Shown piece after piece: positions 1,834-59,980 of a stretch of DNA of 64,000 nt. The notes beneath the pieces are model-generated. The model was not told where the DNA came from and ran no database searches. It worked only from the letters and a program-made list of their open reading frames with translations. The stretch covers positions 47,706 through 111,705 of the forward strand of contig CAZFCF010000003.1 in the NCBI GenBank assembly GCA_964517685.1, given 5' to 3'. How positions within the stretch are numbered: position 1 is the stretch's first letter; each line of letters begins with the position of its first letter. The translations under genes and the position numbers were made by a program. The DNA is from an uncultured Gammaproteobacteria bacterium. Lineage in GTDB: Bacteria; Cyanobacteriota; Vampirovibrionia; LMEP-6097.

Positions 1834-1844
1834 GGGTAGTAATA

Positions 1845-3944: not shown

Positions 3945-4937
3945 ATGCATATAGTTATTTTTGGTATTGGCGCAATTGGAGGGTTCTACGGTATCACTCT
4001 TGCAAGGTATCTGAAAAACAATCCTAGAGAAGATTTCAAAATTAGTTTTATTGCTAGAGGGCAAACTTTTGAAAACTTAAAACATTTTGGAGCTAAATTA
4101 ATTTGTAAAAGAGACACTCTTGGTGAAATGCAAGAGTCTATTGTTGTAGAAAATAATTTTACTTTGGTAAAAAAATATCAAGAGTTAGAAATTAATCCAG
4201 ATGAATATACTTTGGTTTTGCTTTGTGTCAAATCCAAAGACACTATTGATGCTTGCAAAGATATAAAAACTAAACTTACTGATAATACTGCTGTGATCTC
4301 AGTGCAAAATGGAATTGAGAATGAAGAAAGAATTGCAGAAATTTTGGGAATCAAGCATGCAATTGGTTCTCTGACTACGATTGCTGCAGAAACTTTAGAG
4401 CCAGGGATCTATCTTCAGAAAGGTGGTTACGGATTTACTATTGGTGAATTGACAGAGAACATTGGTTATAAGTGGGCTGATAAAAAAAGAATAGATTATA
4501 TTTATAACTTTTTAAAAGAAGCCGGTTTGAGTATTTCACAAACTGAAAATATTAAAGAAGAGCTGTGGATTAAATTAGTTTGGAATGCAGCTTTTAATCC
4601 TATTAGTGTCCTGTATGAAAATACTGTTGGGCAACTACTTGCAGATCCTAAGAAAAAAGCACTTATTGAAGGAGTGATGTTTGAAGTTACTGAAGTGGCT
4701 GCCGCAGAAGGATATAAGTTGCCTGATGGTATAGAGCAGAAGCAAATTGGCAGGACTAGTAGTCCGATTTGGTATGACTTCAGAACTTCGATGTTACAAG
4801 ATTTTCAAAAAGGTAGAGAAATTGAGCTTGATGATTTATTGGGAGTCATTGTTCGCAAAGCCAAAGAGCATGATATCGATGTGCCAAATGCTGAAAAAGT
4901 TTTTAGTGAGCTTTCGGCCGTCATTGCGAGGAGTTAA
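3945..4937 (+). CDS. panE: 2-dehydropantoate 2-reductase (ketopantoate reductase, PanE/ApbA)
   Basis: N-terminal Rossmann motif MHIVIFGIGAIGGFYG. About 330 aa, with KPR-like central and C-terminal regions. The last residues (SAVIARS-stop) are encoded by the MITE at 4917-5019. Confidence 0.65.
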   Translation: MHIVIFGIGAIGGFYGITLARYLKNNPREDFKISFIARGQTFENLKHFGAKLICKRDTLGEMQESIVVENNFTLVKKYQELEINPDEYTLVLLCVKSKDTIDACKDIKTKLTDNTAVISVQNGIENEERIAEILGIKHAIGSLTTIAAETLEPGIYLQKGGYGFTIGELTENIGYKWADKKRIDYIYNFLKEAGLSISQTENIKEELWIKLVWNAAFNPISVLYENTVGQLLADPKKKALIEGVMFEVTEVAAAEGYKLPDGIEQKQIGRTSSPIWYDFRTSMLQDFQKGREIELDDLLGVIVRKAKEHDIDVPNAEKVFSELSAVIARS

Positions 4938-5019
4938 AAGCGACGAAGCAATCCAGTTTGCGCAGGGGGATTGCTTCGCTGGCCGTCACTGCGAGCGAAG
5001 CGCGGCAGTCGCAATGACG
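4917..5019. mobile_element. RPE-like palindromic MITE (family A), full-length copy
   Basis: gccgtcattgcgaggag...cgacgaagcaatcc...ggggattgcttcgct...cgcaatgacg. Terminal inverted repeat gtcattgcga/tcgcaatgac plus an internal inverted repeat gaagcaatcc/ggattgcttc. Family recurs at least 10 times in the window. Confidence 0.8.
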
Positions 5020-11747: not shown

Positions 11748-11749
11748 CT

Positions 11750-12535
11750 TTAAGTAATTAAAAGTAATTCAGAACCGCTAACTAAGTCATCAATAAAATT
11801 TTTTGCTTGTTCAAATTTTGCTTTACCTAAATCACGAATTTTTTTAGCTTCAATCTCAAAACGACTTTTTCTCTTCTTTAGCCATAGCGGAAAATCTTCA
11901 TGCTCTAAAGCTCTAATCATACTTTCTAAAGTCTCTGCTTCAATAGTGAAATCATATTCAACCATAAATCTAAGAGCGCGAGTGAGTCGAGTTGGATCAT
12001 CGATAAAACTTTCTGTATGAAAAGCGCGAATGAGTTTTTTCTCTATATCGCTAATTCCACCAATATGGTCTATGATCTCACCAAAGCTTTTAGGCATCAG
12101 TGATTCAAGTAGGGCATTAATTGTAAAATCTCGGCGTACTAAATCTGCACTAACATCATGAATGATAGTAACTTCTGGGAAAGCTGCGGGCTCAGGATAG
12201 ATCTCTGTTCGGGTACTGGCAATTTCAATCATGCTTGCAGGATATTCTGGATGTTGAATTTTGATAGTACCGAAGCATTTAAACTCTTCGACTATATCGA
12301 AAGTTACATGATTTGGATCATTGTCCTCAAGGTACTTTTGGAATTTATAAATAAATTCAATGGCATCGGTGTTAATAACTAAATCTATATCTTGATTTTG
12401 ATTGAAATTTAATCCGTTTAATTCAGCGTAGATTTTATTGCGTAGATAGCCGCCGACTATATATAATTCATGACCCAATTGCGCTGCCGCCGCGCCAATG
12501 TCTTGAAGAAAGGGATGAATCGTAGCAAAACTCAT
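11750..12535 (-). CDS. tRNA nucleotidyltransferase / poly(A) polymerase family protein (head domain)
   Basis: N-terminus HPFLQDIGAAAAQLGHELYIVGGYLRNKI...DIDLV resembles the PolyA_pol head domain (GGxVRD, DxD). At 261 aa it is shorter than classical CCA enzymes. Confidence 0.45.
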   Translation of the reverse strand: MSFATIHPFLQDIGAAAAQLGHELYIVGGYLRNKIYAELNGLNFNQNQDIDLVINTDAIEFIYKFQKYLEDNDPNHVTFDIVEEFKCFGTIKIQHPEYPASMIEIASTRTEIYPEPAAFPEVTIIHDVSADLVRRDFTINALLESLMPKSFGEIIDHIGGISDIEKKLIRAFHTESFIDDPTRLTRALRFMVEYDFTIEAETLESMIRALEHEDFPLWLKKRKSRFEIEAKKIRDLGKAKFEQAKNFIDDLVSGSELLLIT

Positions 12536-12550
12536 TAAGACCTAAGTCTA

Positions 12551-13885
12551 TTACAAAGTTTCAATAATTTCAAAAAACTCAGGAAACGAAGTATTTACAA
12601 ACTCAGTTTGTAAGATTTCAATAGCTTTAGTTGAATGTAAGGCTGCAATTGCACTACTCATGGCTAATCTATGATCTCCATGTGAATCGATTACAGTATA
12701 GTCTTTGATCGGTTCAAAGGGTTTGCCTGCGCGACCTTCAATGATCATGCCATCTTCTGTTTCTTCAACAGTGACACCAAGATGCTTAAGCATATTAATA
12801 GTAGTTGCAATACGATTGGATTCTTTTACCTTTAATTCAGCTGCATCTTTAATGATGGTAGTTCCTTGAGCCTGTGCCGCCAGGATTGAAATCACCGGAA
12901 TCTCATCAATCAATCTTGGAATTAAATCACCCTCTATAGTAGTGGCTTGAGCTTCTGAATGATAAACAATGATATCTGCAATAGCTTCGTGATTAATTTT
13001 TCTTTTATTAGTAAGTTTGAATTTCACTTTCATGGCTTTTAATACATCAAGAATTCCAGTTCTAGTGGGATTGATGCCGACATTGATTAAATTCAGTTCT
13101 GCTCCCGGTAATATTGCTCCAGCAACTAAGAAGAATGCAGCGCTAGAAATATCACCTGGCACTTCTATTTTTTGTCCTTGAAGTTTAGTAATTGATTTTA
13201 ATCCGTTTAAGCTAGTTCTAAGTCCATCAATTTTAAGATCAGCTCCAAAGCTTCGCATCATTAATTCAGTATGATCGCGAGATTTTTCTGGCTCACTTAC
13301 ACTGGTTACGCCATCAGCATTTAAACCAGCAAGTAAAATACAAGATTTAACTTGAGCGGAAGCAATCTTGGAAACATAATCAATTGCCTTTAATTTTTTT
13401 GCGGTTCCGTCTGGATTGATAATTAAAGGTGCTTTATTGGCACGGCTTTTAATTATTGCGCCCATTTCAGCAAGAGGATCAATTACTCTGCCCATTGGTC
13501 TTCCAGAAAGTGATTCATCTCCAATTAATGTGGTTGTGAAAGGTAGTCCAGCAAAGAGTCCTGTGAGTAAACGCATTCCTGTTCCAGAATTACCTAGGTA
13601 TATGGCTTTACTTGGTTCTTTGAGATTTGCAAAACCGTTGCCGTGAATTTTAACTTCACGCTCGGCTTCATTGAATTCGATTTCAACGCCTAAGGCTTTA
13701 AATGCATTCATTGTACAAATACAATCTTCACCAGTAAGGAAATGTTCGACTTCTGTTAAACCATTTGCGATTGATCCAAAAATAATAGAACGATGAGAAA
13801 TGGATTTATCGCCAGGAATTTTAATTTCTTTTTTTCCAGCTTTTTTTAACTGGGAAATTACTTTCTTTTGCATTTCTTTTTGCAT
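12551..13885 (-). CDS. aroA: 3-phosphoshikimate 1-carboxyvinyltransferase (EPSP synthase, AroA)
   Basis: KIPGDKSISHRSIIFGSIANG, and later LGNSGTGMRLLTG and RPM..V motifs. 444 aa. Confidence 0.85.
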   Translation of the reverse strand: MQKEMQKKVISQLKKAGKKEIKIPGDKSISHRSIIFGSIANGLTEVEHFLTGEDCICTMNAFKALGVEIEFNEAEREVKIHGNGFANLKEPSKAIYLGNSGTGMRLLTGLFAGLPFTTTLIGDESLSGRPMGRVIDPLAEMGAIIKSRANKAPLIINPDGTAKKLKAIDYVSKIASAQVKSCILLAGLNADGVTSVSEPEKSRDHTELMMRSFGADLKIDGLRTSLNGLKSITKLQGQKIEVPGDISSAAFFLVAGAILPGAELNLINVGINPTRTGILDVLKAMKVKFKLTNKRKINHEAIADIIVYHSEAQATTIEGDLIPRLIDEIPVISILAAQAQGTTIIKDAAELKVKESNRIATTINMLKHLGVTVEETEDGMIIEGRAGKPFEPIKDYTVIDSHGDHRLAMSSAIAALHSTKAIEILQTEFVNTSFPEFFEIIETL

Positions 13886-13893
13886 CTTTGTAA

Positions 13894-15249
13894 TTATAAT
13901 TTCATCGCCAGTAAATCTTTTGCACTAATGATTTTGCCATAAAGTGCAGAAGCTGCAACTGTTGCCGGGCTTGCTAAATGCGCTCTAGAACCGGCTCCCA
14001 TGCGACCAGGGAAATTTCTATTAGTGCTAGAAATACAACGATTCTTAGGTGCAACTACACCCATACTCATTCCTAAACAAGGACCACAGCTAGCGTGAGT
14101 CCAAAGCGCTCCAGCATCTTGGAAAATATCATGTAAGCCTTCACGTTCAGCTTGTCTTTTTACTTCTTGAGATCCTGGAGTAATGATAGTAGGAATTTTT
14201 ACTTTATGACCTTTGAGAATATCAGCTGCAATTCTCAAATCAGAAATTCTTGAATTTGTGCAACTGCCAATGAAAGCTTGGTCAAGTTCTAAGTCTTCAA
14301 CTTTATCACCTGGCTTTAGTCCAGTATATTCAAGCGCTTTAGCATCAGCATCAGCAGGAATAACTCCATGAGTTGAAACTGCCTCACCAGGATTGATTCC
14401 CCAAGTTACCATCGGCTCAAGTTTGCTGATATCAAGCTCTACTTCTGCATCGTATTTTGCATCAGGATCAGCTTTGTATTTAGACCATTTAGCTTTTAGT
14501 GCATCAAACTCTTTAGAGTCTTTAGGAATTTGTTCTCTATCGCGTAGATATTCAAAAGTTACTTCATCCGCTTCGATCATGCCACTTGTAGCACCAGCTT
14601 CAATAGCCATGTTACAAATGGTCATTCTCTCTTCCATTGATAAGTCTTTAATGCCATCACCAGTGTATTCCAGTACAAAGCCAGTACCACCTTTAAAAGT
14701 TATTTTACTGATGATTGCAAGAATAATGTCTTTAGCATAAACACCTTCTTGTCTTTTGCCAGTGACATTGATTTTCATTACTTTAGGTTTTTTAAGTAAA
14801 AGACACTGAGATAACATTGCACCAGCGTTTGCAGTAGTACCGATACCCAGTGCAAAACAAGCGAAGGCGCCGTTAGTACAAGTATGTGAATCACCACAAC
14901 AAAGAGTCATTCCTGGTTGTACATAACCTTTCTCAGGAGCGATCACATGGCAAATACCATTTTCACCAATATCAAAGTGTCTTATACCGTGTTTCTTAGC
15001 CCATTTACGTAAAACATCAGCTTGAATTGCAGTAGCTGTATCTTTTGCAGGAGCTACGTGATCATTAATAGCTAAAATTCTTTTGGCATCGAAAATTCTT
15101 CCACCAAATTCTTCATCAATTTGGATAGCGCCTTGAGGAGTAGTAATTTCATGGGCAACAATTTTATCCATGAAAACTAAATAGTTATCGCCGGGTAGTT
15201 TCTCAACTACATGTTCGTCCCAAACTTTCTCAAATAGAGTCTTACTCAT
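13894..15249 (-). CDS. leuC: 3-isopropylmalate dehydratase large subunit (LeuC; aconitase family)
   Basis: Collinear with E. coli LeuC: MSKTLFEKVWDEHVV, GMTLCCGDSHTCTNGAF, LSMEERMTICNMAIEAGA, FIGSCTNSRISDLR, CGPCLGM, STNRNFPGRMG. No leuD is adjacent. Confidence 0.8.
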   Translation of the reverse strand: MSKTLFEKVWDEHVVEKLPGDNYLVFMDKIVAHEITTPQGAIQIDEEFGGRIFDAKRILAINDHVAPAKDTATAIQADVLRKWAKKHGIRHFDIGENGICHVIAPEKGYVQPGMTLCCGDSHTCTNGAFACFALGIGTTANAGAMLSQCLLLKKPKVMKINVTGKRQEGVYAKDIILAIISKITFKGGTGFVLEYTGDGIKDLSMEERMTICNMAIEAGATSGMIEADEVTFEYLRDREQIPKDSKEFDALKAKWSKYKADPDAKYDAEVELDISKLEPMVTWGINPGEAVSTHGVIPADADAKALEYTGLKPGDKVEDLELDQAFIGSCTNSRISDLRIAADILKGHKVKIPTIITPGSQEVKRQAEREGLHDIFQDAGALWTHASCGPCLGMSMGVVAPKNRCISSTNRNFPGRMGAGSRAHLASPATVAASALYGKIISAKDLLAMKL

Positions 15250-18118: not shown

Positions 18119-19126
18119 ATGGTACTTGGTGGTCAAACAAGTGGATTTAGTGCAGCTCCTTACGTTAGCCCGAATGCTAACTTTCCGACTAGTAATGGTC
18201 CAAAGAGCGCTGACACAAAGCCCGCAATTAATAGAGTAAGCCCTGCTGATGTGAGCAAGGTTGCGACGCAGAAGCCTGGAGCTAAGGCAGATCAGTTTGT
18301 AGATATAGCAGATAAGGCTACACAAAATCATGAAGATGCTAAAAGAGTTCATGATGATCTGAAGAAAGACAAAGCCCTTCAAGCAGATACTTTTAAGAGT
18401 AGAATTGAAGTTGGTAAATCTAGAAGTGAAGTTTTATTACAACAAGTTGCAGTTAAGCAATTAAACGATAAAGAATTTAAAAAACAACAAGCAGAGAATT
18501 TTGCTAAAAATCTTAGTGAAAGCCAGCTGAAAGGTAAAGCTAATCAAGGAGCAGTTCAGCAAGAACCACTCTCTGCTGATAAAGATCAAAATCTTGCAAG
18601 TAATGTAGTTCAATCGCAAATTGAAACTTTAGATCCTGATGCTAAAGCAAGAAAAAAACTTGATGATAAATTACAGAAAATTTACAATAGTGGTAGTGAA
18701 AAAGGAAAACATTTCGTTTCATTTGTCTCAAGAGAAATGACCAAAGGTCCTCTGCCAAAGAGTATTCTTGAGTTAGTTGATGGTTTTCTTGAAACTCTTA
18801 AGCCGCAAGGCAGTCAAACTCCATCACAGATGATTGCATCTGGTAATGAACCAATTTCAACTCTTAAAAGTATGGTTTCTGCTACTGATCTTGAAGAATT
18901 AGGGCAGATCCAAAATAGTTTAGCTAATTCGGTTGTTGCTTCTGCAGGAGAAAAAACAGATCTTCTTGCAATTAGAAATTTACTTAAAGTTGAGGTTAGG
19001 CAAGCACCTCCTCCAGCATTAGTCTCAAATTTTAATGATAGAGATAATTTAAAAACTGCTGCTGATTTTGTTATATCAATTAATCGTGGTGTTGCTAATA
19101 CGCCTTGGGATGCCATAGCTGCATAA
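18119..19126 (+). CDS. hypothetical protein (335 aa, Lys/Gln/Ala-rich)
   Basis: ORF only; no recognisable motif. Confidence 0.4.
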   Translation: MVLGGQTSGFSAAPYVSPNANFPTSNGPKSADTKPAINRVSPADVSKVATQKPGAKADQFVDIADKATQNHEDAKRVHDDLKKDKALQADTFKSRIEVGKSRSEVLLQQVAVKQLNDKEFKKQQAENFAKNLSESQLKGKANQGAVQQEPLSADKDQNLASNVVQSQIETLDPDAKARKKLDDKLQKIYNSGSEKGKHFVSFVSREMTKGPLPKSILELVDGFLETLKPQGSQTPSQMIASGNEPISTLKSMVSATDLEELGQIQNSLANSVVASAGEKTDLLAIRNLLKVEVRQAPPPALVSNFNDRDNLKTAADFVISINRGVANTPWDAIAA

Positions 19127-33912: not shown

Positions 33913-34207
33913 CGTAATATAGATTATATTTTGAAAATTAATCTTCTTTAATTCCATGGGTGGAACTTTTTCTAAAACTTTTCAATGGTTGATACAAAAG
34001 GAATTTCACACAATATGATATACGTCTTACTCATTCATACAAAAATCTTAATTTTAAAAACTTAGCTAAAACAGTTGACCGCCTACCTAAAATTTGAAAG
34101 TATTAATGCTGTATTCTAATACGCTGGGTCTTAGTCCCTTGACCAATAGTGTTAGGAAATTTTTTATGGAAAAAAATAGGGTGAAAAAAACAAACAAAGG
34201 AGAAACA

Positions 34208-37200
34208 ATGAGTCTAAGGAAACTACTTTCTTTACTCTTACTTACGGCGTTTACTATGACGTCGATCGCTCCTGCCCAGGCGGCAGTTACGCTTAATTCA
34301 GGCGTAGTGCTTCCAACCATAGCTCAAGACGACGGTACACGTGCCGACGGTGCAAACAGAGATGTTGTGCCTTTAGTTTTGAGAATTGGTTTCGTTGGCG
34401 GAGATCTTACATTTGCACCGGACGGTACTGCGTTCCAAGCGCTTGACTCTTTCACTGTTCAAAACAATGGAAGTTTATCAACAACTGGATTTACAGTTCC
34501 AGCTCCGAGAGTTGCAGTTTTCGTACCACCTACTGGTACTGAATTCGTTAAATTAGTAGCTAATAGCTATAGAGATTTAACTTCAACTATCACTATTGCA
34601 AATGGTACGTCAGGTTCAGCAACGATCAATGGAACAACTCTTTTGAACGTTACTGCTGATTCTGCTACTACAGCTAGTTTCCCTGGAACAGGCGCTGGTG
34701 CAGTTGTTGCTGCAGTAGTTCTTACTGAGGCTGCTGGCGATGCAACGTTTGGTATTGGTTCTAGCACTGAGTTCCCAGCTGGTAGCTTAGTTGTTCAGTT
34801 CTTTACTAAAACAGATGCACCTAACCAAATTACTACTGGTGCTGGTGGACTTATCGTTATTAACGGTATCGGTCTTGCTGCAGATCCTGGTACTAGCTTA
34901 GGTTCTACAGGTGATTTAAACATCACTTATAAAGCTCCTAATACAAGTGCTGTGGCTCTTGCTGCTTTCGGTAGCTCAGTTTTAGCTGATGATACAGCTA
35001 TTAAAGTTGCTACTAAAGCAGATAACATTGGTAAATTAGAGTTCTTACAAGTTGGTACTACTACTGGTACTGAAGTAAGCACTACTTCTGAGCCAGACAG
35101 TCAACCAAACACAATACTTGCTGGTTTAATTTCAGGTACTACAGTTACTGTTGGTCCTGGATTAATCACTTCAACTGGATCTAGCTTAGCTACTGCAAAT
35201 CTTGATACGGATACACTTCTTATCAGAGCAGCTGAAAGAGCTGAATCTACAACAAGTGCAAGAGCTTATTACGAAACTCCGTTCAATACTTCAGCTTTAG
35301 TTCTAAGCCAAGTATTTAATGGTAGAGAAGCTACAACAATTCGTGATTTGACACTTGATGGTAATACTACTAACTTCCCTAACGCTGCTAACGCTTTAAT
35401 CAAAGTAACTTTTGCATTAGAGACTCCAGCAGGTGCTGCTTCTACAGCTACTCTTGCAGTTAACGCTGTAACAGTATCTATGGTAAGTCCTAGAGCATTT
35501 AATGGTTTCAGAAACACTGGAGCTGCTACAGGTGGTCAAACTCAAGCTCTTGAGGGTGCATTGCCTGGCGTAAGAGGTTTCTCAGGAGGTTTAATTAACA
35601 CTCTTGATAACGCTCCTGCGACTTCTGGTGTGACTAAGCGTACATTATATGGAGTTCTTGCTCTTTACAATGGTACAGCTTCTGTAACACAATACCAAGC
35701 AAAAGACACATTCACTGCTGACTTCAGAGCTCAAGATACTCAAAGAGGTCTTACAGATGCAGTTGCTAACACTAATACTGTAGTTGCTGGTAACGATACA
35801 CCTAGTAGTACTGGTACTGCTGCTCCAAGTGCAGACAGAATCAGTATGTTCCCTGGATCTATGATCATCAATGCTGCTGCCGCTAACGGTGTTGCTGCGT
35901 GGGATCTTGTTAACACAGCAAATGGCTCTGGATCAACTCCATTCTCATTTGCATTAGCAAGTTCTAATGACACTTATGCAAACACTAATACTATTTGGAA
36001 TCCATCAGAAGTTTCTGTAAGGATGATAAATGGTACTGGAGGAGCTTCTATTGGTAATACCGCGTATTTCTTAATTCACGGTACTAATGGAGCTGACGTA
36101 GGTGTTACTGTTGATAACTTCAGAGTTGCTTCAACTAACGTGAACGCTTCAACTGAGTTCTACGATAATGGAGTTACTTTGAAAGATGCAAACAATACTG
36201 TTGATGCACGTAATAACGTGTTAATGGCAGCTAAACTCAAAGCAAATGTTCTTGAGATTATGCCTGTATCTAATAAGTTTGATGGCTTAAGAGATGTACT
36301 TGCTCTCAGACCTGAAGCTACTATTACTCTTGATGCTACATCTAAGACTACTGGTGTGAACCTTGTAGCTACTGCTACTGGTAACAACCTTCCAACAGCT
36401 GGAGTGAAGCTAACTATAGCTAAAATCCTTCCTACTGGTGGTTTCACAGCTGGTCTAGATCTAACGTCATCGGCTCTTCCTGTTCATGGAACAATTGGTA
36501 CTCCAGCATTAATGAGCGAAAGTTCAACTGATGCAGGAGCTAGCAGATCTGCTATCCAATTGAGTAGCGTAACAGGTGCTACTACTTCTACTGATAATCT
36601 TTCAGATATCGTAGGAACTGGTAAGTCACTTGATACTACATTACCTCCATTATTCTGTGGTGGTACTGCTGGTACAGCTACTAGAGGTCCTAATGGTGTT
36701 GTATTCCAACCTAAGGCTCGTGCAATTCTGTTAACTGAAAACGGTACTACTAATTTCCAAGCAATTGAAGATTTAGGTGCTAACACAGTAATCAGAGTTA
36801 CTCTTCCTACAGGATGGGATCTAAACAAATATACAGCTACTAACGGTAACTTCCTTGCAACTGGAGTTTCTGGTGGTTTAACTGCGACTGTTATTAGAAC
36901 GCAAGACATCACTAGTACGGTCTCTAGAGCATTCATTGATATTACTGTTGATAGTAGTGCAACTACTGTAAGCACTAAGAGATTACTTGGTCTGTTCTTC
37001 AAGCCTAATGCGCTTGTAGTTCCAGAAGGAGTAACTAGCTTTACTGCTGATGTAGCGATTTACAATACAGCTGGTACCGCGGCAACTACTGATGATACTC
37101 TTGTGGGTACTATCGGTACAGTTAGCTTAGGTTCTGCATGTTCTACATTGTTAACAGTTTCATTCTGCGATAGCTCAATTTCATCTTTCGTAGCTTCTGG

Positions 37201-38899
37201 TTCTACAACTCAGACTACAGAAAATGGAAGAGTTGCTACAAGCGGATCTCAATTAACTGAATTTGGTGGATCACCATCTTCAATTCAGAGACTTGTTAAC
37301 TCATCTGCAAGTAACGAAGTAATCCTTCCAGACCTATGTGTGGAAGAGGGTGTGGCTGATGCATTACCAGTTGGTTCTATAACTGACGGTGTGCCAAGCA
37401 TATTCGGTGAATCTGCTTCTTCTACTGTAGGTGATGTTGAATTACACATTTCAACTAGCTTTGCTGGAAGTACTGCTACAGGTGAAGTTGGTCTAGATAC
37501 AGCTGCAACAGCAGTTCTATTCTCAGACACATCTATCATTGCTGACGGTGCATCAAGTGTAGTTACTACTGGTGATGATAATGAAGTAATCGTTCCTTTA
37601 CAGGAAGGTACTGCTTCAGGAAGAAAGAGACCATTCTTGGAAAAAACTCAAATCAGAATTACTGGTTTAAGACTTGACCAAGCTGCGGCTTCTCAACCAG
37701 TATCAGCACAAGACATATTAGTTTGGGCTGAAGTTGCGACAGGTACTGGTTCAGTAGCTGTTGGTAGCAATGCTGTAATTAGTAATGAAGAAACAAATAC
37801 TACAACTCATGAGTTCTTTGCTGGTAACGTATTTAGCTCTGGTAACGAAGATGAGAAATATTCAAACTCATTCTCTGACAAAGTGATAGATACTACTACA
37901 GGAACTGTAGTTGCTACTAGCTTCGGTGATAACAGTGCTACTGTTGCAACTAACACATTACAAGTTGCTCAGTCACTAGGTAATCACGGTACATTGAGTG
38001 GTGCTGTTGAGTCATTACTTGACAATTCAGGATACACATTACTTGATGAAGATACTACTTTCAGCGTTCAACTAAGTGATATCACTGGTTCTACAGACAA
38101 GAAAGCTACTATATCTGTTAATCCAGGATCATTAGAGCCAGGAACACTTGTTACTTTAACGTCAAGTGGTTCAGGTAATAGCGATTCAGTAACAGTTCCA
38201 GTACTTGATGATGGTAGTTTCATCGGTTCGATCAGAGCTAACACAAGTCAAACGATTGTGGTAACTCAAGGTCCTACTTCAACTCAAACTGGTGCTCTTC
38301 AATTAAGAGAATTAGATGTAGTTGAACAAAACGTTGAGCCTGTAATCACAGGAGCTGTAGCTGAGAATATTGGAATCGGTATCCTTACTAGAAGAGGAAC
38401 TGCGCCAGTAGTATTCACGGTAACTGCTAAAGGTAAATTGAATGGAGTTGACTTTACGCCAACTGCTAGCCAATTGACTTTAGGTGGTTCAAGCGTAATT
38501 GCTGTAACAGGTACTGATGATAAATTCATCGGTATTGCTGACTTCAGCAAATCAACGGCCTTGACTGTTAAAGCAACAGCTAATGGTGAGGAAAGTACAG
38601 CTACACTTACTGAGTTAGCTGTGTCTAATCCAACACTTAGTGGTGGTCCAGTTCTTAAGAAAGTTAAAGTCAACAAAAAAGGAAGAATTGCTCTTTCTGG
38701 TTTGAGACTACGTAACGGCGGAACATTCGGATTCGTATTAAGTGATGGTACTTACGTGCCAGTTGACCTAAAAGCTCAAACTGCTAACCAGAAGAAAACA
38801 GGTAAGAGAACTTCTGCTGTAGAAGCTACTATTCCAGCTACTGCAGTATTAGGTGTCTTCCATGTTCCTGGACGTGGTACTAGTACAATCGAACTATAA
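34208..38899 (+). CDS. giant secreted Thr/Ser/Ala/Gly-rich surface protein (1563 aa); candidate S-layer or surface-array protein
   Basis: Strong RBS aaggag 8 nt before the ATG at 34208. Signal peptide MSLRKLLSLLLLTAFTMTSIAPAQA. Only 6 Cys in about 1560 aa. Biased, highly-expressed-gene-like codon usage. Ends at a strong bidirectional terminator shared with flagellin. Confidence 0.6.
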   Translation: MSLRKLLSLLLLTAFTMTSIAPAQAAVTLNSGVVLPTIAQDDGTRADGANRDVVPLVLRIGFVGGDLTFAPDGTAFQALDSFTVQNNGSLSTTGFTVPAPRVAVFVPPTGTEFVKLVANSYRDLTSTITIANGTSGSATINGTTLLNVTADSATTASFPGTGAGAVVAAVVLTEAAGDATFGIGSSTEFPAGSLVVQFFTKTDAPNQITTGAGGLIVINGIGLAADPGTSLGSTGDLNITYKAPNTSAVALAAFGSSVLADDTAIKVATKADNIGKLEFLQVGTTTGTEVSTTSEPDSQPNTILAGLISGTTVTVGPGLITSTGSSLATANLDTDTLLIRAAERAESTTSARAYYETPFNTSALVLSQVFNGREATTIRDLTLDGNTTNFPNAANALIKVTFALETPAGAASTATLAVNAVTVSMVSPRAFNGFRNTGAATGGQTQALEGALPGVRGFSGGLINTLDNAPATSGVTKRTLYGVLALYNGTASVTQYQAKDTFTADFRAQDTQRGLTDAVANTNTVVAGNDTPSSTGTAAPSADRISMFPGSMIINAAAANGVAAWDLVNTANGSGSTPFSFALASSNDTYANTNTIWNPSEVSVRMINGTGGASIGNTAYFLIHGTNGADVGVTVDNFRVASTNVNASTEFYDNGVTLKDANNTVDARNNVLMAAKLKANVLEIMPVSNKFDGLRDVLALRPEATITLDATSKTTGVNLVATATGNNLPTAGVKLTIAKILPTGGFTAGLDLTSSALPVHGTIGTPALMSESSTDAGASRSAIQLSSVTGATTSTDNLSDIVGTGKSLDTTLPPLFCGGTAGTATRGPNGVVFQPKARAILLTENGTTNFQAIEDLGANTVIRVTLPTGWDLNKYTATNGNFLATGVSGGLTATVIRTQDITSTVSRAFIDITVDSSATTVSTKRLLGLFFKPNALVVPEGVTSFTADVAIYNTAGTAATTDDTLVGTIGTVSLGSACSTLLTVSFCDSSISSFVASGSTTQTTENGRVATSGSQLTEFGGSPSSIQRLVNSSASNEVILPDLCVEEGVADALPVGSITDGVPSIFGESASSTVGDVELHISTSFAGSTATGEVGLDTAATAVLFSDTSIIADGASSVVTTGDDNEVIVPLQEGTASGRKRPFLEKTQIRITGLRLDQAAASQPVSAQDILVWAEVATGTGSVAVGSNAVISNEETNTTTHEFFAGNVFSSGNEDEKYSNSFSDKVIDTTTGTVVATSFGDNSATVATNTLQVAQSLGNHGTLSGAVESLLDNSGYTLLDEDTTFSVQLSDITGSTDKKATISVNPGSLEPGTLVTLTSSGSGNSDSVTVPVLDDGSFIGSIRANTSQTIVVTQGPTSTQTGALQLRELDVVEQNVEPVITGAVAENIGIGILTRRGTAPVVFTVTAKGKLNGVDFTPTASQLTLGGSSVIAVTGTDDKFIGIADFSKSTALTVKATANGEESTATLTELAVSNPTLSGGPVLKKVKVNKKGRIALSGLRLRNGGTFGFVLSDGTYVPVDLKAQTANQKKTGKRTSAVEATIPATAVLGVFHVPGRGTSTIEL

Positions 38900-38927
38900 A
38901 TCTATAGATCGATAATATACAAATAAC

Positions 38928-38958
38928 TAAAAGGGAGCTTTCGGGCTCCCTTTTTTTT
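38928..38958. terminator. bidirectional rho-independent terminator
   Basis: aaaagggagctttcgggctcccttttttttg: an A-tract, a 7-bp GC stem, then a T-tract. It serves both the + strand surface-protein gene and the - strand flagellin gene. Confidence 0.8.
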
Positions 38959-38990
38959 GTATTAAATCTCTTTCGAAATCGTAAATTGTT

Positions 38991-39938
38991 CTAACCTTTA
39001 ATAAGCTGTAGTGCTATTTGTGGAGTTGCATTCGCTTGAGAGAGCATCGCTGCGGCAGTTTGCTGCAGGATTTGGTTCTTGACTAAGATACTACTTTCTT
39101 GAGCAACGTCAACATCTTGGATACGCGATCTAGATGCTTCGGCGTTTTCTTTAGCAATGTCCATGTAGTCAGTTTTTGACTCCAGTGCATTTTGAGTAGC
39201 TCCTAGGTAAGATCTCATTCTAGAGATATTGTCGATAAGAGTATCAATATCACCAACCGAAGCGGCAACGTTAGTTGTGTGAGTAGCATAGTTAAGTGAA
39301 TTAACATTTGCACCACTAATTTGCAATCTATCTAAGGCAAAACCCGTAGTAGTGCCTTCAATGATGTGACCGTAATCAGTTGTACCGCCATCTGCCACTT
39401 CACTGATATCGATGTCGATACCATTGTTAGCTGCATACTCAGAACGTAGACTCAAAACAGTGGTCTGACTTGCATCAGCACCGGTTTGTAGAGTTAAGTC
39501 TGCAGATGAGGAATTGTTACTGCTAAGCAAGTTGATACCATTGAATTTTGTTGATCCAGAAATATCATTGATAACTTTAACTCGCTCGTTAATCTCTCTT
39601 TGTAGAGCGTCTTTCTCGTTAGTGCCGTTAGTTCCGTTGACACCTTGTACAACAAGTTCTCTAATTCTCTGTAAATTTTCTTGTATAACTTGCAAACCAC
39701 CTTCTGATGTTTGAATGAGTGAAATACCATCAGCGGCATTTTGTTTAGCTTTGTCAAGACCGCGAATAGTTGTTGTAAGCTTGTTTGCGATACTTAAGCC
39801 GGCTGCATCATCTGCTGCTCTGTTGATTCTGTAACCTGTAGATAAATGTTCGATATTTCTCTCAAGTCCCATAGTATTCATTCTTAATGCCCTTTGGGCG
39901 AAGATACTTTGTGTGTTTGTGTTTACTACTAATGCCAT
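38991..39938 (-). CDS. fliC: flagellin (copy 1)
   Basis: N-terminus MALVVNTNTQSIFAQRALRMNTMGLERNIEHLSTGYRINRAADDAAGLSIANKL and C-terminus QNQILQQTAAAMLSQANATPQIALQLI are canonical flagellin D0/D1 segments. Confidence 0.9.
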   Translation of the reverse strand: MALVVNTNTQSIFAQRALRMNTMGLERNIEHLSTGYRINRAADDAAGLSIANKLTTTIRGLDKAKQNAADGISLIQTSEGGLQVIQENLQRIRELVVQGVNGTNGTNEKDALQREINERVKVINDISGSTKFNGINLLSSNNSSSADLTLQTGADASQTTVLSLRSEYAANNGIDIDISEVADGGTTDYGHIIEGTTTGFALDRLQISGANVNSLNYATHTTNVAASVGDIDTLIDNISRMRSYLGATQNALESKTDYMDIAKENAEASRSRIQDVDVAQESSILVKNQILQQTAAAMLSQANATPQIALQLIKG

Positions 39939-40149
39939 AATTGTTTCCTGCTTAAAATATCGGAACTTTGCAGGCTAGCACAGTTAACCATTGAGACTAT
40001 TTGTTGGAGCCTAACCTCAGGAAATCTAGGCACAGTGAGCTAATTTAGTGTGCAGGACTAATCTAAAAAGACTATAGGCATGAGAATTTCATTGAAATCT
40101 CGATTGTTTAATCAGATTTTAATTTGATTTATTTACTATAACTCTAGCT

Positions 40150-40761
40150 ATGGTAAACATTTCGCCAACAGCCAAATCAAATATATCTAGGTTTCAATCT
40201 GCAGAGGCCCCGGCGGCATCTAATATTAGCTTAGCTGCTGCTAATAATCATGGAGCTAGAGTTAGCAATTTAATCGGTGGTGGTGCTGCAACTGGCTCTA
40301 CAGGCGGTTTAAACAATCCATCAGGTTCTTCACAAACCAAAAGCTCCAAGAGTTTTGCTCAACTCATTGATATGAGTCATTATACTGATACTTACAAAGA
40401 TTATACGGACAAGTCAAAGGAAGCAGAAAATGTTTTAAAAACATATGAATCTAAAGTAGCTACTGGTGATGCTCCTGATAATCCATCTCAATTTCATTCT
40501 TCATATTCAGAAATTCTTTCATTAAATACTTTAGAAGAGTTTTATAAACAAGAAACATTATTCTGGAAATCAGAACAGAGTTTTACTAGTGCCAATCCTG
40601 ATAAATTAACTAAGGGTAGAGCAGACTCCTATAGAAATCTCCAAGATTTAGAAAGCCGTTATGAAGAAGCTTTGATTGCAGGCAATACTATTAAAGCTGC
40701 AGATCTAAAAGGTGATATTAACGCAGCGAAACACAATCTCCAAGCGTCACAGACGGCTTAA
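40150..40761 (+). CDS. hypothetical protein within the flagellin locus (203 aa)
   Basis: ORF only. Ser/Gly/Ala-rich N-terminus, helical C-terminus. The stop overlaps the flagellin copy 2 stop by 4 bp (convergent). Confidence 0.35.
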   Translation: MVNISPTAKSNISRFQSAEAPAASNISLAAANNHGARVSNLIGGGAATGSTGGLNNPSGSSQTKSSKSFAQLIDMSHYTDTYKDYTDKSKEAENVLKTYESKVATGDAPDNPSQFHSSYSEILSLNTLEEFYKQETLFWKSEQSFTSANPDKLTKGRADSYRNLQDLESRYEEALIAGNTIKAADLKGDINAAKHNLQASQTA

Positions 40762-41693
40762 TTTGGTAATAGCGACAAGACTATTTGTGGAGTAGTATTT
40801 GCTTGAGTAAGCATGGCGGCAGCGGTTTGTTGCAAAATTTGGTTCTTCACTAGAATACTACTTTCACGGGCGACATCTACATCTTTAATTCTAGATCTAG
40901 AACTTTCAGAATTTTCACGAGCAATGTCAATAAAATTTACTTTTGATTCGAGAGCATTTTGTGAGGCACCAAGATACGATCTCATTCTGGAAATATTGTC
41001 TATCATTGCATCTAAATCATTAGCTGAAACAGCAACATTCGTTGTATGTGTAGCATAATTAAGCGAATTAACATTTGAACCATTTATGTATAAACGATCT
41101 AGAGCAAAGCCAATTGAAGTGCCTTCAATTAAGTGACCATAGTCAGTTGTACCACCATCTGCAACTTCGCTTATATCAATGTCAATCCCGATCTGGGATT
41201 GAACTCCAGATTCAAATTTAATTTCTGAATTTTGTCCATTTACAGTTCCAGTTTGTAAGATTCGATCTGTAGTCCCTGCAAGCAAACTAATTCCATTAAA
41301 TTGAGTTGCTTGAGATATATCAGAAATAATTTTAATCCTTTCGTTTATTTCTCTTTGTAGAGCACCTTTTTCGTTAGAGCTATAAGTGCCGCTTGTACCT
41401 TGGATAACCAATTCCCTGATTCTTTGTAAGTTTTCTTGGATTACTTCTAAGCCACCCTCAGCTGTCTGTAGCATTGAAACACCGTCGCCAGCGTTCTGCA
41501 TAGCTTTCTCTAAGCCTTTTAATTCAGTAGTTATTTTATTACTGATACTTAAACCTGCCGCATCATCGGCAGCTCTATTTATTCTAAAACCTGTAGACAA
41601 ATGTTCGATATTTGCCTTTAAACCATCGGTGTTAACTCTCAGTGCTCTTTGAGCAAAAAGACTTTGAGTATTGGTGTTGATTGATAATCCCAC
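40758..41693 (-). CDS. fliC: flagellin (copy 2, divergent paralog)
   Basis: MGLSINTNTQSLFAQRALRVNTDGLKANIEHLSTGFRINRAADDAAGLSISNKI...LTQANTTPQIVLSLL. Conserved termini with a diverged central domain. Confidence 0.9.
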   Translation of the reverse strand: MGLSINTNTQSLFAQRALRVNTDGLKANIEHLSTGFRINRAADDAAGLSISNKITTELKGLEKAMQNAGDGVSMLQTAEGGLEVIQENLQRIRELVIQGTSGTYSSNEKGALQREINERIKIISDISQATQFNGISLLAGTTDRILQTGTVNGQNSEIKFESGVQSQIGIDIDISEVADGGTTDYGHLIEGTSIGFALDRLYINGSNVNSLNYATHTTNVAVSANDLDAMIDNISRMRSYLGASQNALESKVNFIDIARENSESSRSRIKDVDVARESSILVKNQILQQTAAAMLTQANTTPQIVLSLLPN

Positions 41694-41823
41694 TCATCTA
41701 CTATTCACCCGAGGGACTAAGATCTAAATCAGCCCCCAGACTGATTTTCATGGTTAAATGCAGTTAATTAGTCTCAAAGTCCTAGATTAAAAGGACTGTT
41801 TTATTTATTTTGAAAATTCTAAT

Positions 41824-41936: not shown

Positions 41937-42887
41937 TTAGCCGCCTTTAATAAGCTGTAGTGCTATTTGTGGGGTTGCGTTCGCTTGCGAGAGCATCGCT
42001 GCGGCAGTTTGCTGCAGGATTTGGTTCTTGACTAAGATGCTACTTTCTTGAGCAACGTCAACATCTTGGATACGCGATCTAGATGCTTCGGCGTTTTCTT
42101 TAGCAATGTCCATGTAGTCAGTTTTTGACTCCAGTGCATTTTGAGTAGCTCCTAGGTAAGATCTCATTCTAGAGATATTGTCGATAAGAGTATCAATATC
42201 ACCAACCGAAGCGGCAACGTTAGTTGTGTGAGTAGCATAGTTAAGTGAATTAACATTTGCACCACTAATTTGCAATCTATCTAAGGCAAAACCCGTAGTA
42301 GTGCCTTCAATGATGTGACCGTAATCAGTTGTACCGCCATCTGCCACTTCACTGATATCGATGTCGATACCATTGTTAGCTGCATACTCAGAACGTAGAC
42401 TCAAAACAGTGGTCTGACTTGCATCAGCACCGGTTTGTAGAGTTAAGTCTGCAGATGAGGAATTGTTACTGCTAAGCAAGTTGATACCATTGAATTTTGT
42501 TGATCCAGAAATATCATTGATAACTTTAACTCGCTCGTTAATCTCTCTTTGTAGAGCGTCTTTCTCGTTAGTGCCGTTAGTTCCGTTGACACCTTGTACA
42601 ACAAGTTCTCTAATTCTCTGTAAATTTTCTTGTATAACTTGCAAACCACCTTCTGATGTTTGAATGAGTGAAATACCATCAGCGGCATTTTGTTTAGCTT
42701 TGTCAAGACCGCGAATAGTTGTTGTAAGCTTGTTTGCGATACTTAAGCCGGCTGCATCATCTGCTGCTCTGTTGATTCTGTAACCTGTAGATAAATGTTC
42801 GATATTTCTCTCAAGTCCCATAGTATTCATTCTTAATGCCCTTTGGGCGAAGATACTTTGTGTGTTTGTGTTTACTACTAATGCCAT
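41937..42887 (-). CDS. fliC: flagellin (copy 3, near-identical to copy 1)
   Basis: Coding sequence essentially identical to 38991-39938 over about 950 bp, with a few substitutions at the 3' end. Flanking DNA is unrelated. Confidence 0.9.
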   Translation of the reverse strand: MALVVNTNTQSIFAQRALRMNTMGLERNIEHLSTGYRINRAADDAAGLSIANKLTTTIRGLDKAKQNAADGISLIQTSEGGLQVIQENLQRIRELVVQGVNGTNGTNEKDALQREINERVKVINDISGSTKFNGINLLSSNNSSSADLTLQTGADASQTTVLSLRSEYAANNGIDIDISEVADGGTTDYGHIIEGTTTGFALDRLQISGANVNSLNYATHTTNVAASVGDIDTLIDNISRMRSYLGATQNALESKTDYMDIAKENAEASRSRIQDVDVAQESSILVKNQILQQTAAAMLSQANATPQIALQLIKGG

Positions 42888-43025
42888 GATTTCTATCCTC
42901 TCGTTTATCCCCGTAGTGGTGATTTATTACTGACATTTTGATTTATCGGAATCGCCATGGAGATCTAAGTCGGTCGAATACCTTAATTTTTTCTTCAAAT
43001 AGTACATGAGTACTAGTACTAATAG

Positions 43026-56983: not shown

Positions 56984-58018
56984 ATGGGTAAAAGTCAAAG
57001 CTCTATAAGAAGTTGGACCAAGCGAATGAAAGTCGCTGCAATGCTCGTGCTTATGGATCAAGAAGCAGCTGCAGGTGTGCTTAGAAGTTTTGATGATGAT
57101 CACGAAGTAATTGCTCTTGCAAAAGAGATTTCAATGGTTAGTACTGTTAGTGAAGCTGATCAAGAAATTTTATTAAATGAGATGTATGATGCACTACAAA
57201 TACAAAAAGGTGTTGCTAGTGGAAGTTTAGATTTAGCTGAGAACATGTTGGTGCAAGCTTATGGTCATGAGGGTGCTAATGACATTATCGACAAGATGAC
57301 GAACACTATTCAAAGGGTACCTTTTGAGTTCTTGCGTATCGTAGATCCTGAGCAGATAGCAAACACTATCCAACATGAACATCCACAAGTTATAACATTG
57401 CTTTTATCACATTTGAAAATTGAAAAAGCTGCAAGTGTTTTGCAAAATCTTCCTGAAGGTGTTAGATCAGACATTGCTATAAGGCTTGCAAAAATGGATA
57501 GAACGAATCCAGAAATTCTTTCTGTGGTTGAAAGAATTTTGGAAAGAAGATTTGCTGGGATTATGTCTCAGAACGAAATTCAGAATACTGTTGGTGGTAT
57601 CGAATCACTTGCAGAAATCCTCAACCGTGTTGATAGAAATACTGAGAAGAGAATTCTTGAAGATCTGGAAACTATTGACCAAGCGCTTGCTACAGATATT
57701 CGTAACTTGATGTTCGTATTTGAAGACATTATTAGATTGGATGATAAATCTATTCAGAGATTGCTTCGTGATGTTGATTCTAGAGATCTTGGACTTGCTC
57801 TGAAAGGTGCTCCTGAAGATATTCGTGTGGCATTCTTTAGAAATATGTCTGAGAAAGCATCTAAGCTTATGCAAGATGATATCGAGATGATGGGTCCAGT
57901 ATTGATGAAGGATGTATCAGAAGTACAAACCAAAATTGTTGGTATTGTTAGATCACTTGAACAAGCTGGTGAGATCATTATTCTTGGTAATAGTGATGAA
58001 GACATGTTCATTGAATAA
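56984..58018 (+). CDS. fliG: flagellar motor switch protein FliG
   Basis: The C-terminal torque helix region (IRNLMFVFEDIIRLDDKSIQRLLRDVDSRDLGLALKGA...) is the FliG signature. 344 aa. Confidence 0.8.
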   Translation: MGKSQSSIRSWTKRMKVAAMLVLMDQEAAAGVLRSFDDDHEVIALAKEISMVSTVSEADQEILLNEMYDALQIQKGVASGSLDLAENMLVQAYGHEGANDIIDKMTNTIQRVPFEFLRIVDPEQIANTIQHEHPQVITLLLSHLKIEKAASVLQNLPEGVRSDIAIRLAKMDRTNPEILSVVERILERRFAGIMSQNEIQNTVGGIESLAEILNRVDRNTEKRILEDLETIDQALATDIRNLMFVFEDIIRLDDKSIQRLLRDVDSRDLGLALKGAPEDIRVAFFRNMSEKASKLMQDDIEMMGPVLMKDVSEVQTKIVGIVRSLEQAGEIIILGNSDEDMFIE

Positions 58019-58897: not shown

Positions 58898-59980
58898 TTG
58901 CATGATAAGATAATCGACTCAATGTTTGTTCAATCTGCACATACCATCAAAGACTCTCCTCGTGACCTTTCTAGCTTTAAAGAGAAATTGTTTCCAGGCA
59001 ATATAACAGCCTATAAAGTGGATTGGAAAGCTAACGGAAGTCCACAAGAGTTCCCGATCAAATCTGCGCAAGAGCTTGGAATTTCTGAAAAAGCTTTTAC
59101 GGCTATTAAAATTTTATTTCCCTATTTGGATAAAGTTTTTAGAGCAACTGGCGCTCAATTTATACCGCAGCAACATTCTACTGTTGCTAATCATTTAGCA
59201 GGTCTACAAAATTTATGTGATGAAATTTTTATTGTAGAACCTAGATTAAAATTTACAGAATCACAACAAGTTCGATTCGATGACCTTGCTAAGCAAACTA
59301 GGCTGGTATTAATGTTGCATGATATTTCTGAAATTCCTGGAGAAATATCTACTTTCTGCCAAAGATTACCCAAAGAAAAACTCACAGAGACTACTATTAC
59401 AGAAACTGATCGTCAAGAACTCGAGCAGCGAGTTGCAAAGAAATTAATTTGGCATTCTTTAAAAGCTGCATATGCAAACAGAAAAAGCTTGCCTAGAAAA
59501 TTACATCAAGCAATAACTAAGTGTCAAGATCAAGTCAGTAAGCAAGTTTCATTACCTGAAGAGCGATATAAATTAGTTGATGAGTTTTATAAATCTCTTC
59601 CTGAAATTGATGATAATTATGGAAGCAAAAAGTTTAAACAAGACTACGAAAAACTGTGGCAGGCTTACTTACCAGAGAAGAAAGGTAAAAATGCAATTCA
59701 TAATATGGCAATTGCAGCTTTGGCTAAATTAATTGATAAACTTGAATCAAAATTTCATTGTGCAATTGTTGGAGATTATTCCAAATTTGATTTTGAACCA
59801 AAATATATTATTGAAAAAGAATTTGCTCAGTTCAAAGAATTTCGTGAAAAATATTCTCACCTTTTACTATCTCCAATTTTGAAAAATTTAGCTAATTTAT
59901 TTAAAACTAGTGTAACAATTTACAGAGAGTGGCCTCAATTGGGTAGAGCGCTTGAAGAATTTAGGCTATGGGAGCATTAG
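58898..59980 (+). CDS. HD-domain protein (YfbR-like metal-dependent phosphohydrolase N-terminal half plus C-terminal extension)
   Basis: H...H (QQHSTVANHLAG) followed by LVLMLHDISEIPGEIS. This matches the HD motif arrangement of 5'-deoxynucleotidase YfbR (..YHDASEVLTGD..). 360 aa. Confidence 0.5.
   Translation: MHDKIIDSMFVQSAHTIKDSPRDLSSFKEKLFPGNITAYKVDWKANGSPQEFPIKSAQELGISEKAFTAIKILFPYLDKVFRATGAQFIPQQHSTVANHLAGLQNLCDEIFIVEPRLKFTESQQVRFDDLAKQTRLVLMLHDISEIPGEISTFCQRLPKEKLTETTITETDRQELEQRVAKKLIWHSLKAAYANRKSLPRKLHQAITKCQDQVSKQVSLPEERYKLVDEFYKSLPEIDDNYGSKKFKQDYEKLWQAYLPEKKGKNAIHNMAIAALAKLIDKLESKFHCAIVGDYSKFDFEPKYIIEKEFAQFKEFREKYSHLLLSPILKNLANLFKTSVTIYREWPQLGRALEEFRLWEH

Follow-up and report, generated by a model that had tools for sequence, protein, structure and literature searches.

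The 64-kb stretch of contig CAZFCF010000003.1 analysed here (the window; GC content 37%) contains an open reading frame (ORF) of 1563 amino acids (aa), referred to below as the giant gene and its product as the giant protein, with all positions given in window coordinates. We read this product, at a probability of roughly 45%, as an abundant cell-surface structural protein, namely the protomer of a surface layer (S-layer)-like coat anchored by its C-terminal module, in a flagellated member of the Caenarcanales. S-layer proteins are exported, very abundant, acidic and Cys-poor proteins of 40-200 kDa with a modular body and anchor. The giant protein looks exported and has an export signal, a mature mass of 156 kDa, a pI of 4.57, four cysteines and a distinct basic C-terminal module; its abundance is only suggested by codon usage, ribosome binding site and terminator. 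Since it is acidic, consists to 55% of Thr, Ser, Ala, Gly and Val and contains merely 0.3% Cys and 0.6% Met, its composition is typical of S-layer proteins. The preliminary description of this locus had nominated it as a candidate S-layer or surface sheath protein; the resemblance to S-layer proteins in composition and all-beta architecture speaks for the first part of that proposal, whereas a link to a flagellar sheath is not supported. S-layer proteins arose many times without sequence similarity to each other (PMC12175726), therefore a new family of this sort adds one more to a known kind, and most likely the giant protein is a new sequence family within the already known functional, S-layer-type, kind.

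In the mechanism we propose, the giant gene would form a transcription unit by itself, bounded by its own conserved sigma-70-like promoter and a strong terminator, with translation starting at a ribosome binding site close to consensus; the precursor would be exported via Sec and cut after AQA, and the mature chain is predicted to fold into about 10 to 12 Ig-like beta-sandwich domains arranged as beads on a string. The acidic body (pI ~4.4), bearing two fast-evolving and indel-rich regions, would point outward, and the basic C-terminal beta-sandwich (pI ~10.6) may hold the protein to an anionic envelope component, e.g., lipopolysaccharide (LPS) of the outer membrane. The vicinity of flagellin genes would reflect gene order inherited in one sub-lineage rather than shared function.

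Gene Boundaries and Expression Signals

The 1563-aa ORF noticed at first reading is real, as supported by its ribosome binding site, signal peptide, terminator and full-length homologues, although the end coordinate assigned to it then (38958) takes in the terminator and the coding sequence (CDS) itself stops at 38899 (Table 1). The Shine-Dalgarno sequence is near-perfect, as had been stated (AAGGAG at 34197-34202, 5 nt 5′ of the ATG), and its region, AAAGGAGAAA, is unchanged in eight orthologous loci of the upstream alignment. An element of the form GTTGACC-N12-TnTG-N2-A-N-TATnnA located farther upstream is invariant in the window and seven orthologous loci, with a similar arrangement at the distant locus L018; in the 64-kb window the GTTGACC-type element occurs once versus 0.01 occurrences expected. 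We infer that TTGACC and AAGTAT spaced by 17 nt represent the promoter of the giant gene, TATTAA at 34101-34106 being an alternative −10 hexamer, and the transcription start is tentatively placed from the position of this promoter. Generic promoter scan upstream of the giant gene gave no promoter, missing the element because its −10 agrees at only three of six positions; it was seen solely by aligning upstream regions of orthologues. Rfam detected no RNA family in the leader, its sole match in the window being one tRNA-Tyr.

The cleavable signal peptide proposed earlier was recognized by eye as well: MSLRKLLSLLLLTAFTMTSIAPAQA, followed by AV after the cleavage point, shows an n-region of positive charge, then a hydrophobic core and finally an AxA site, and this n/h/c pattern is kept in the orthologues. 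Motif scan of the giant protein found no lipobox, transmembrane segment, LPXTG, RTX or thioester motif. The terminator had been characterized as very strong and bidirectional. It is strong indeed, with the hairpin at 38929-38954 lying in a 71-nt segment with folding energy of −20.8 kcal/mol (z = −4.85), and bidirectional only roughly, its minus-strand tail (TTTTAGTTATTTGT) being weaker.

Composition, Codon Usage and Antisense Frames

The extreme bias toward Thr, Ser, Ala, Gly and Val pointed out before holds under comparison with the rest of the window (54.6% in the giant protein versus 32.0% in the other 47 ORFs pooled). Relative to these ORFs Thr is 2.7-fold enriched and Lys is at 0.34 of the reference level; an underrepresentation of approximately 2.5- to 5-fold applies to each of Lys, Met, His, Tyr, Trp and Cys. 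The cysteines, previously counted as six, are four (residues 817, 978, 987 and 1044). N-x-S/T sequons of the giant protein are not enriched (20 versus 20.5 ± 3.8 in shuffled sequences), and the idea of an N-glycoprotein was dropped as their number is at shuffle level.

Codon bias does differ from that of neighboring genes: GC content at third codon positions is 0.20, and C-ending codons constitute 0.02 of four-fold families, the lowest value among long genes of the window. At two-fold sites C/(C+T) is 0.49, which is matched only by two flagellins (0.52 and 0.53) and POR-alpha (0.53). This strong preference for T at four-fold sites together with raised C at two-fold sites is the pattern expected under translational selection. 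The attribution of properties of highly expressed surface-array proteins can thereby be kept in part, since a high level of expression is suggested, indirectly, by the codon usage and by the signals for expression.

The claim that nearly every antisense frame is open was overstated: one frame is stop-poor (33 stops), and the others contain 108 and 197. Antisense ORFs of at least 100 aa in the giant gene are only two, 36484-37002 (−), 172 aa, and 38299-38676 (−), 125 aa. Antisense ORFs of orthologues give BLAST matches with ~60% identity because they shadow the conserved sense frame, and very likely neither of the two is a gene.

Family Distribution and Predicted Structure

Sequence searches in Pfam, NCBIfam and PDB gave no significant match for the whole giant protein, for five segments of it, or for the family and C-terminal domain (CTD) profiles, the Pfam cut-offs being E ≤ 1 for the whole protein and E ≤ 10 for the segments. 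The search with profiles of SLH, S-layer and Big/fibronectin-like families, recommended in the preliminary description, was run against Pfam and NCBIfam and matched nothing, so the suspicion that the family may be novel stands. In the index of 5.8 billion proteins 13 relatives were detected, which measure 1461-1617 aa and lack Pfam domains, an exact look-up of P0001 gave no entry, and the profile of aa 540-1563, run without word index over 1.84 billion cluster representatives, retrieved 45 relatives at E ≤ 1e-3, about 20 of them full length (1461-1688 aa). Scanning one genome per species revealed nine related loci.

Most placeable relatives come from metagenome-assembled genomes (MAGs) of Caenarcanales/Melainabacteria. 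Titles of the related loci read “Candidatus Caenarcanales bacterium”, “Candidatus Melainabacteria bacterium” or belong to automatically labelled MAGs, including “uncultured Gammaproteobacteria”. Caenarcanales are placed within Melainabacteria/Vampirovibriophyceae, the non-photosynthetic sister group of cyanobacteria, for which diderm envelopes are inferred (PMC3787301; PMC4040986). Caenarcaniphilales are inferred to hold flagellar genes from the melainabacterial ancestor (PMC4040986), and the flagellar genes scattered over the window (FlgN, MotA, FliG and three flagellins) agree with this.

Two AlphaFold monomer models were built with an alignment of 13 sequences, covering aa 26-800 and 690-1563 with mean predicted local distance difference test (pLDDT) of 61 and 69, respectively. 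Both are nearly all beta and almost helix-free. Confident blocks comprise aa 26-425, ~600-990 and 1279-1563, the last of which is made up of three small sandwiches (pLDDT 81-94). Confidence is low at aa 428-600 and 1178-1275, which are also the least conserved and most indel-rich parts, and over a shorter stretch at ~990-1036. The conserved core consists of beta domains with block pLDDT of ~53-91 over aa 700-990 and below 50 beyond ~990. Twelve of the 13 members keep the four cysteines, whereas P0013 has all of them replaced together, and this joint replacement suggests that they form two disulfides. Pairwise hhalign comparison of all 100-aa alignment windows detected no internal repeat (best probability 44% over 22 residues). 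Structure prediction had been advised with tandem Ig-like or beta-helix folds in view; fold searches with the models matched only generic Ig-like strings, with low TM-scores throughout. These fold matches include Ig-like adhesins and pilins (PrgB, SiiE, MpIBP, Bap, SpaP and invasin), IPT/TIG domains, MG domains of complement and alpha-2-macroglobulin (A2M), and the Haloferax S-layer protein 7ptp. The giant protein is thus predicted to be built of non-repetitive beta-sandwich domains.

The C-Terminal Module

The preliminary description recognized no anchoring motif; no known motif is present, but a conserved basic two-domain C-terminal module (CTD-A) is a good candidate for anchoring or sorting. 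In the search of cluster representatives the final ~190 positions of the profile, equivalent to target aa ~1370-1558, match the C-termini of the much shorter proteins P0035, P0038 and P0041 as well, with 27-37% identity over ~190 aa and E values of 1e-17 to 1e-27 in local BLAST. All three are Peptidase_S8 subtilases, in which a sub-threshold dockerin/EF-hand-like segment is followed by CTD-A; a Fervidolysin_NPro-like prodomain is matched by P0038 and P0041 and falls below threshold in P0035 (E 0.083). P0047 (205 aa) contains a signal peptide and CTD-A alone. Being found in at least three architectures (giant protein, S8 protease and stand-alone), CTD-A is an autonomous module. Other family members (P0013, P0024 and others) possess a different C-terminal module, and P0043 ends in a dockerin-like segment, therefore the C-terminus of the family is exchangeable. 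CTD-A occurs in no other ORF of the window or of the fetched related loci, its profile shows no sequence similarity to PDB chains, and scanning metagenomes for CTD patterns gave no match. When the CTD alignment or one protease CTD was used in word-index searches, even the known members were missed, so these empty results are uninformative.

The module coincides with a split of charge along the polypeptide. The last 95 aa of the giant protein have pI 10.56 and net charge +9, and the rest of the mature chain has pI 4.36 and net charge −52; in all 13 family members the last 95 aa have pI 9.1-11.4 and the remainder 4.05-4.73, and the CTDs of the proteases and P0047 are likewise basic. S-layer proteins typically have one part for assembly and a distinct domain for anchoring, the latter binding LPS in Gram-negatives (PMC12175726), and an acidic body with a basic sandwich at its end would fit an electrostatic anchor to an anionic envelope.

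A bolder proposal, which we regard as unlikely, is that CTD-A represents an undescribed surface-sorting or anchoring tag of diderm Melainabacteria, akin to a type IX secretion system (T9SS) CTD or to SLH domains, and that it directs a set of proteins exported by Sec, namely the giant protein as a coat, the S8 proteases and the small protein consisting of CTD-A alone, to reach or cross the outer membrane along a route not yet characterised. In that case the giant protein would be the first one of S-layer type identified in the non-photosynthetic sister lineage of cyanobacteria.

As a separate observation, the genes of CTD-A-bearing S8 proteases at L012 2768-5002 (−) and L013 5686-9043 (−) adjoin primase-helicase-like genes (DUF3854/DUF5906/DUF3987), that of L013 being also beside phage-integrase genes, which suggests their location on integrated mobile elements.

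Comparison With Known Surface Proteins

The giant protein resembles HPI of Deinococcus radiodurans, csg of Haloferax volcanii (PDB 7ptp) and Sap of Bacillus anthracis in being a large, acidic, Cys-poor and exported string of beta-sandwiches; for these S-layer proteins the beads-on-a-string build and modular division between assembly and anchoring are described (PMC12175726). Foldseek matched 7ptp with E of 8e-5. The giant protein differs from them by the lack of detectable sequence similarity and of SLH domains (PF00395 was not found by Pfam in the whole protein or its five segments); besides, the fold match is generic (TM-score 0.13-0.15) and the lattice is only putative.

In having both a Sec signal peptide and a conserved beta-sandwich at the C-terminus that recurs on proteases secreted by the same organisms, the giant protein is reminiscent of T9SS cargo such as TfsA/TfsB of Tannerella forsythia, where the T9SS CTD serves as an address domain common to S-layer protein and exoproteases (PMC4175972; PMC8869499). 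Unlike that domain, the module of the giant protein is two-domain (~190 aa) and basic, and neither the whole giant protein nor its last 285 aa matched Por_Secre_tail/T9SS CTD families of Pfam or NCBIfam. T9SS is not known outside Bacteroidota and related groups.

At the level of the phylum, an S-layer carried by an LPS-bearing diderm has its nearest counterpart in the cyanobacterial RTX-type protein Sll1951 of Synechocystis, which at ~1700 aa has a size similar to that of the giant protein, with Caulobacter RsaA as the diderm model. Proteins of the Sll1951/RsaA type are not known to have an N-terminal signal peptide; they contain GGxGxD calcium-binding repeats and use type I secretion. The giant protein, by contrast, carries a signal for Sec and is free of RTX repeats: HemolysinCabind of Pfam and the GGxGxD motif are both absent from it. 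The role of Sll1951 in the S-layer is described elsewhere (PMC9509626).

Giant Ig-like adhesins such as SiiE, MpIBP, Bap and PrgB carry many near-identical tandem repeats and dedicated signals for secretion or anchoring, and the giant protein has neither, with no match to the repeat families of Pfam (BIg, cadherin-like and Bap type). Clear adhesin or autotransporter features had been named as evidence against the S-layer assignment. Neither these (a barrel of autotransporter type, a signal for sortase, repetitive domains of adhesins) nor RTX repeats were found. In particular, Pfam gave no autotransporter or inverse-autotransporter barrel, the C-terminus being modelled as small sandwiches with pLDDT above 83 and the N-terminus matching sandwiches as well; LPxTG/NPxTG motifs are lacking, and no 19-residue window exceeds 1.6 on the Kyte-Doolittle scale. 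Fervidolysin-type envelope subtilases are similar to the partner proteases P0035, P0038 and P0041 in the prodomain and Peptidase_S8 matches described above and in ending with two beta-sandwich domains. This last comparison concerns the proteases and not the giant protein, and the CTD profile has no sequence similarity to PDB entries.

Table 1. Features of the giant gene, its product and the adjacent flagellin genes in the window
Feature	Position	Strand	Remarks
Candidate sigma-70-type promoter	34075..34103	+	−35 TTGACC 34075-34080, 17-nt spacer, −10 AAGTAT 34098-34103
5′ leader, ~100 nt, with Shine-Dalgarno 34197-34202	34104..34207	+	CT[TA]AGTC segment partly conserved in closer relatives
Giant-gene CDS, stop included	34208..38899	+	ATG 34208, TAA stop 38897-38899, 1563 aa; full-length homologues 1461-1688 aa
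Sec-type signal peptide, aa 1-25	34208..34282	+	predicted cleavage between AQA and A; sequence inspection
N-terminal beta-sandwich region, aa 26-425	34283..35482	+	highly conserved GANRDVVP motif at its start
Variable indel-rich region, aa 428-600	35489..36007	+	pLDDT mostly <50; lowest column identity and highest gap fraction in family alignment
Most conserved core, aa 680-1080	36245..37447	+	all four Cys; conservation 0.6-0.78
Second variable acidic region, aa 1178-1275	37739..38032	+	pLDDT <50, conservation ~0.5, pI 4.05
Ig-like beta-sandwich domain, aa 1279-1364	38042..38299	+	pLDDT 81-88, seven strands; Ig-like, IPT/TIG-like and BIg-like matches
CTD-A two-domain module, aa 1365-1563	38300..38896	+	pLDDT 83-94
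Second CTD-A sub-domain, aa 1469-1563	38612..38896	+	strongly basic, pI 10.56
Intrinsic terminator	38929..38962		11-bp GC-rich stem, 4-nt loop, T8; between convergent giant gene and flagellin 38991-39938
Three flagellin genes	38991-39938, 40758-41693, 41937-42887	−	Flagellin_N/Flagellin_C domains
CCGATAT/CCGATAA boxes, FliA/SigD-like	39957-39963, 42943-42949	−	upstream of flaA and flaC

Genomic Neighborhood

The order ruvA, giant gene, two to four flagellins and enolase is kept in the window and at L001-L004, L006, L007 and L022, and since the housekeeping genes (ruvA, KAS and enolase) are collinear across the same regions, adjacency to flagellins is explained by descent. Four relatives with enough flank, L019, L018, L015 and L026 (identity of 49% for L019 and of 32%, 31% and 27% among the other three), have no flagellin in the neighborhood: at L019 NuoD lies downstream, and L018 retains ruvA, with AhpC and HisRS downstream. 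The giant gene is convergent with the flagellins, therefore it is not co-transcribed with them, and Pfam found no Flagellin_N/Flagellin_C domains in its product. Most flagellin genes examined in the window and related loci L001-L007 have CCGATA(A/T) boxes, resembling a sigma-28 −10 element, 50-100 nt upstream; the middle flagellin of the window, flaB, has no exact CCGATA box, and no CCGATA is present upstream of the giant gene. The exact 11-mer TCTTAGTCCCT is found in the leader of the giant gene at 34129-34139 (+) and in that of the middle flagellin at 41712-41722 (−), the similarity extending as ...TCTTAGTCCCT[TGACC/CGGGTG]AATAGT. As the leaders of orthologous flagellins do not preserve this motif, it was given little weight, and co-regulation with flagellins via this sequence was dismissed.

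The giant gene is the most divergent gene of its block, with its product being about 32-42% identical to the L002, L006 and L007 orthologues versus 69-83% for enolase, POR and KAS and 54-76% for flagellins. It is present in one copy at a fixed syntenic site with length held at 1461-1688 aa, and the rapid divergence fits an exposed protein. In the 1-Mb contig L007 the orthologue (9959-14374) is broken into four ORFs, due either to long-read frameshift errors or to a pseudogene state.

The outer two flagellins of the window are 99-100% identical in compared blocks of DNA, indicating recent duplication or gene conversion, and the middle one is ~71% identical to them. Between two flagellins lies a 203-aa ORF at 40150-40761 (+), overlapping by 4 bp with the stop of the convergent gene 40758-41693; Pfam gave no match for this ORF and the orthologous loci lack an equivalent, so it could be either a lineage-specific small protein or spurious. 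FlgN, MotA and FliG (1363-2705 (+) and 56984-58018 (+)) stand singly or in pairs among housekeeping genes and form no large operon. The 1268-aa ORF at 7941-11747 (+) has as its only Pfam match a sub-threshold N-terminal DUF748 (35.8 bits versus a cutoff of 50); we take this domain to be AsmA/TamB-like, and the product may presumably be an envelope biogenesis protein. Pfam matched nothing in the sizeable ORFs 4747-6603, 18119-19126 and 58898-59980. L015 (1-7500) and L026 (1-4500) contain, on the upstream side of their distant giant-gene homologues, long tandem arrays of a two-gene cassette for small predicted membrane proteins, one of ~76-95 aa with “FRAESLRxFGL...SP” and another of ~50-57 aa ending with “DPNKSFLENFFSA” or “DPNLPKKKFFKSK”; about 10 copies are present in L015, and no Pfam match is on record.

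Weighing of Alternative Explanations

Several points weigh against the assignment as an S-layer-like protomer. A lattice of the giant protein is hypothetical, and its surface location and abundance are presumed, the organisms being uncultured; for a Sec-dependent protein of 156 kDa in a diderm no route across the outer membrane can be named. GroEL and enolase of the window do not show raised C usage at two-fold sites, which leaves the codon argument for high expression suggestive only. Confidence of the AlphaFold models is moderate with an alignment of this depth, and the anchoring role of the basic domain is proposed from charge and modularity. The same observations may be accommodated, somewhat improbably in our estimate, by a large non-lattice adhesin or fibre, in which individual extended Ig-like chains would project from the outer membrane and serve attachment to particles, prey or partner cells, with the C-terminal module fixing them at the cell-proximal end. 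Ig-domain adhesins and pilins are the top fold matches, and the giant protein is exported, fast-evolving and equipped with variable regions. The absence of tandem sequence repeats, together with steady length and a single syntenic copy, makes the giant protein unlike repeat-expanding adhesins, however; no known adhesin, stalk or tip domain was detected in Pfam or NCBIfam, features of type I secretion/RTX or of autotransporters are absent, and codon use is like that of high-copy structural proteins, e.g., flagellin.

A protein never crossing the outer membrane, for example an A2M-like protease trap or a structural spacer of the periplasm, has a low probability in our view. Matches to MG domains have TM-scores as low as 0.06-0.15, and rapid divergence as well as the module common to secreted proteases suit an exposed protein better; A2M identity as such was rejected, since Pfam shows neither an A2M nor a bMG domain, the sequence lacks both a CxEQ thioester and a lipobox, and the models contain nothing like the large helical thioester domain. 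Lower still we place a protein of the flagellum, be it one that sheathes or coats the filament or an accessory factor, that evolves together with the adjacent flagellin array, as might be imagined from the position of the giant gene directly beside two to four flagellins in the window and at L001-L004, L006, L007 and L022, from the terminator region common to it and the first flagellin, and from the 11-mer shared with the middle-flagellin leader. Convergent orientation, collinearity of the region with housekeeping genes, relatives lacking a flagellin neighbor, poor conservation of the 11-mer among orthologous flagellin leaders and the scattered location of flagellar genes in the window all argue otherwise, and sigma-28-type boxes precede most flagellins (two of three in the window), whereas the giant gene has a TTGACC-type element. 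Flagellin glycosylation or sheath association, offered in the preliminary description as an alternative, is accordingly not supported, the giant gene being convergent and having its own sigma-70-like promoter. The least credible possibility is an enzyme-display scaffold with cohesin-like sandwiches of the giant protein binding dockerin-like segments of the CTD-bearing S8 proteases, which would have to be built solely on sub-threshold matches.

Significance

Melainabacteria are the closest non-photosynthetic relatives of cyanobacteria; almost none are cultured, and what is said of their envelope derives from generic sets of genes. Where S-layers were suggested for this group before, the proteins concerned were homologues with SLH domains or porin-like ones (PMC3787301; PMC4451040), unlike the giant protein. 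If it were merely one more large adhesin, the finding would be routine. As a specific, conserved and probably abundant surface protein, it is a target for antibodies or probes to find and sort the cells, as well as for metaproteomic detection, lattice prediction and cryo-electron tomography. The newest element is possibly the basic C-terminal module shared with proteases, as a lineage-specific surface address tag, which would hint at how this lineage attaches or secretes its surface proteins.

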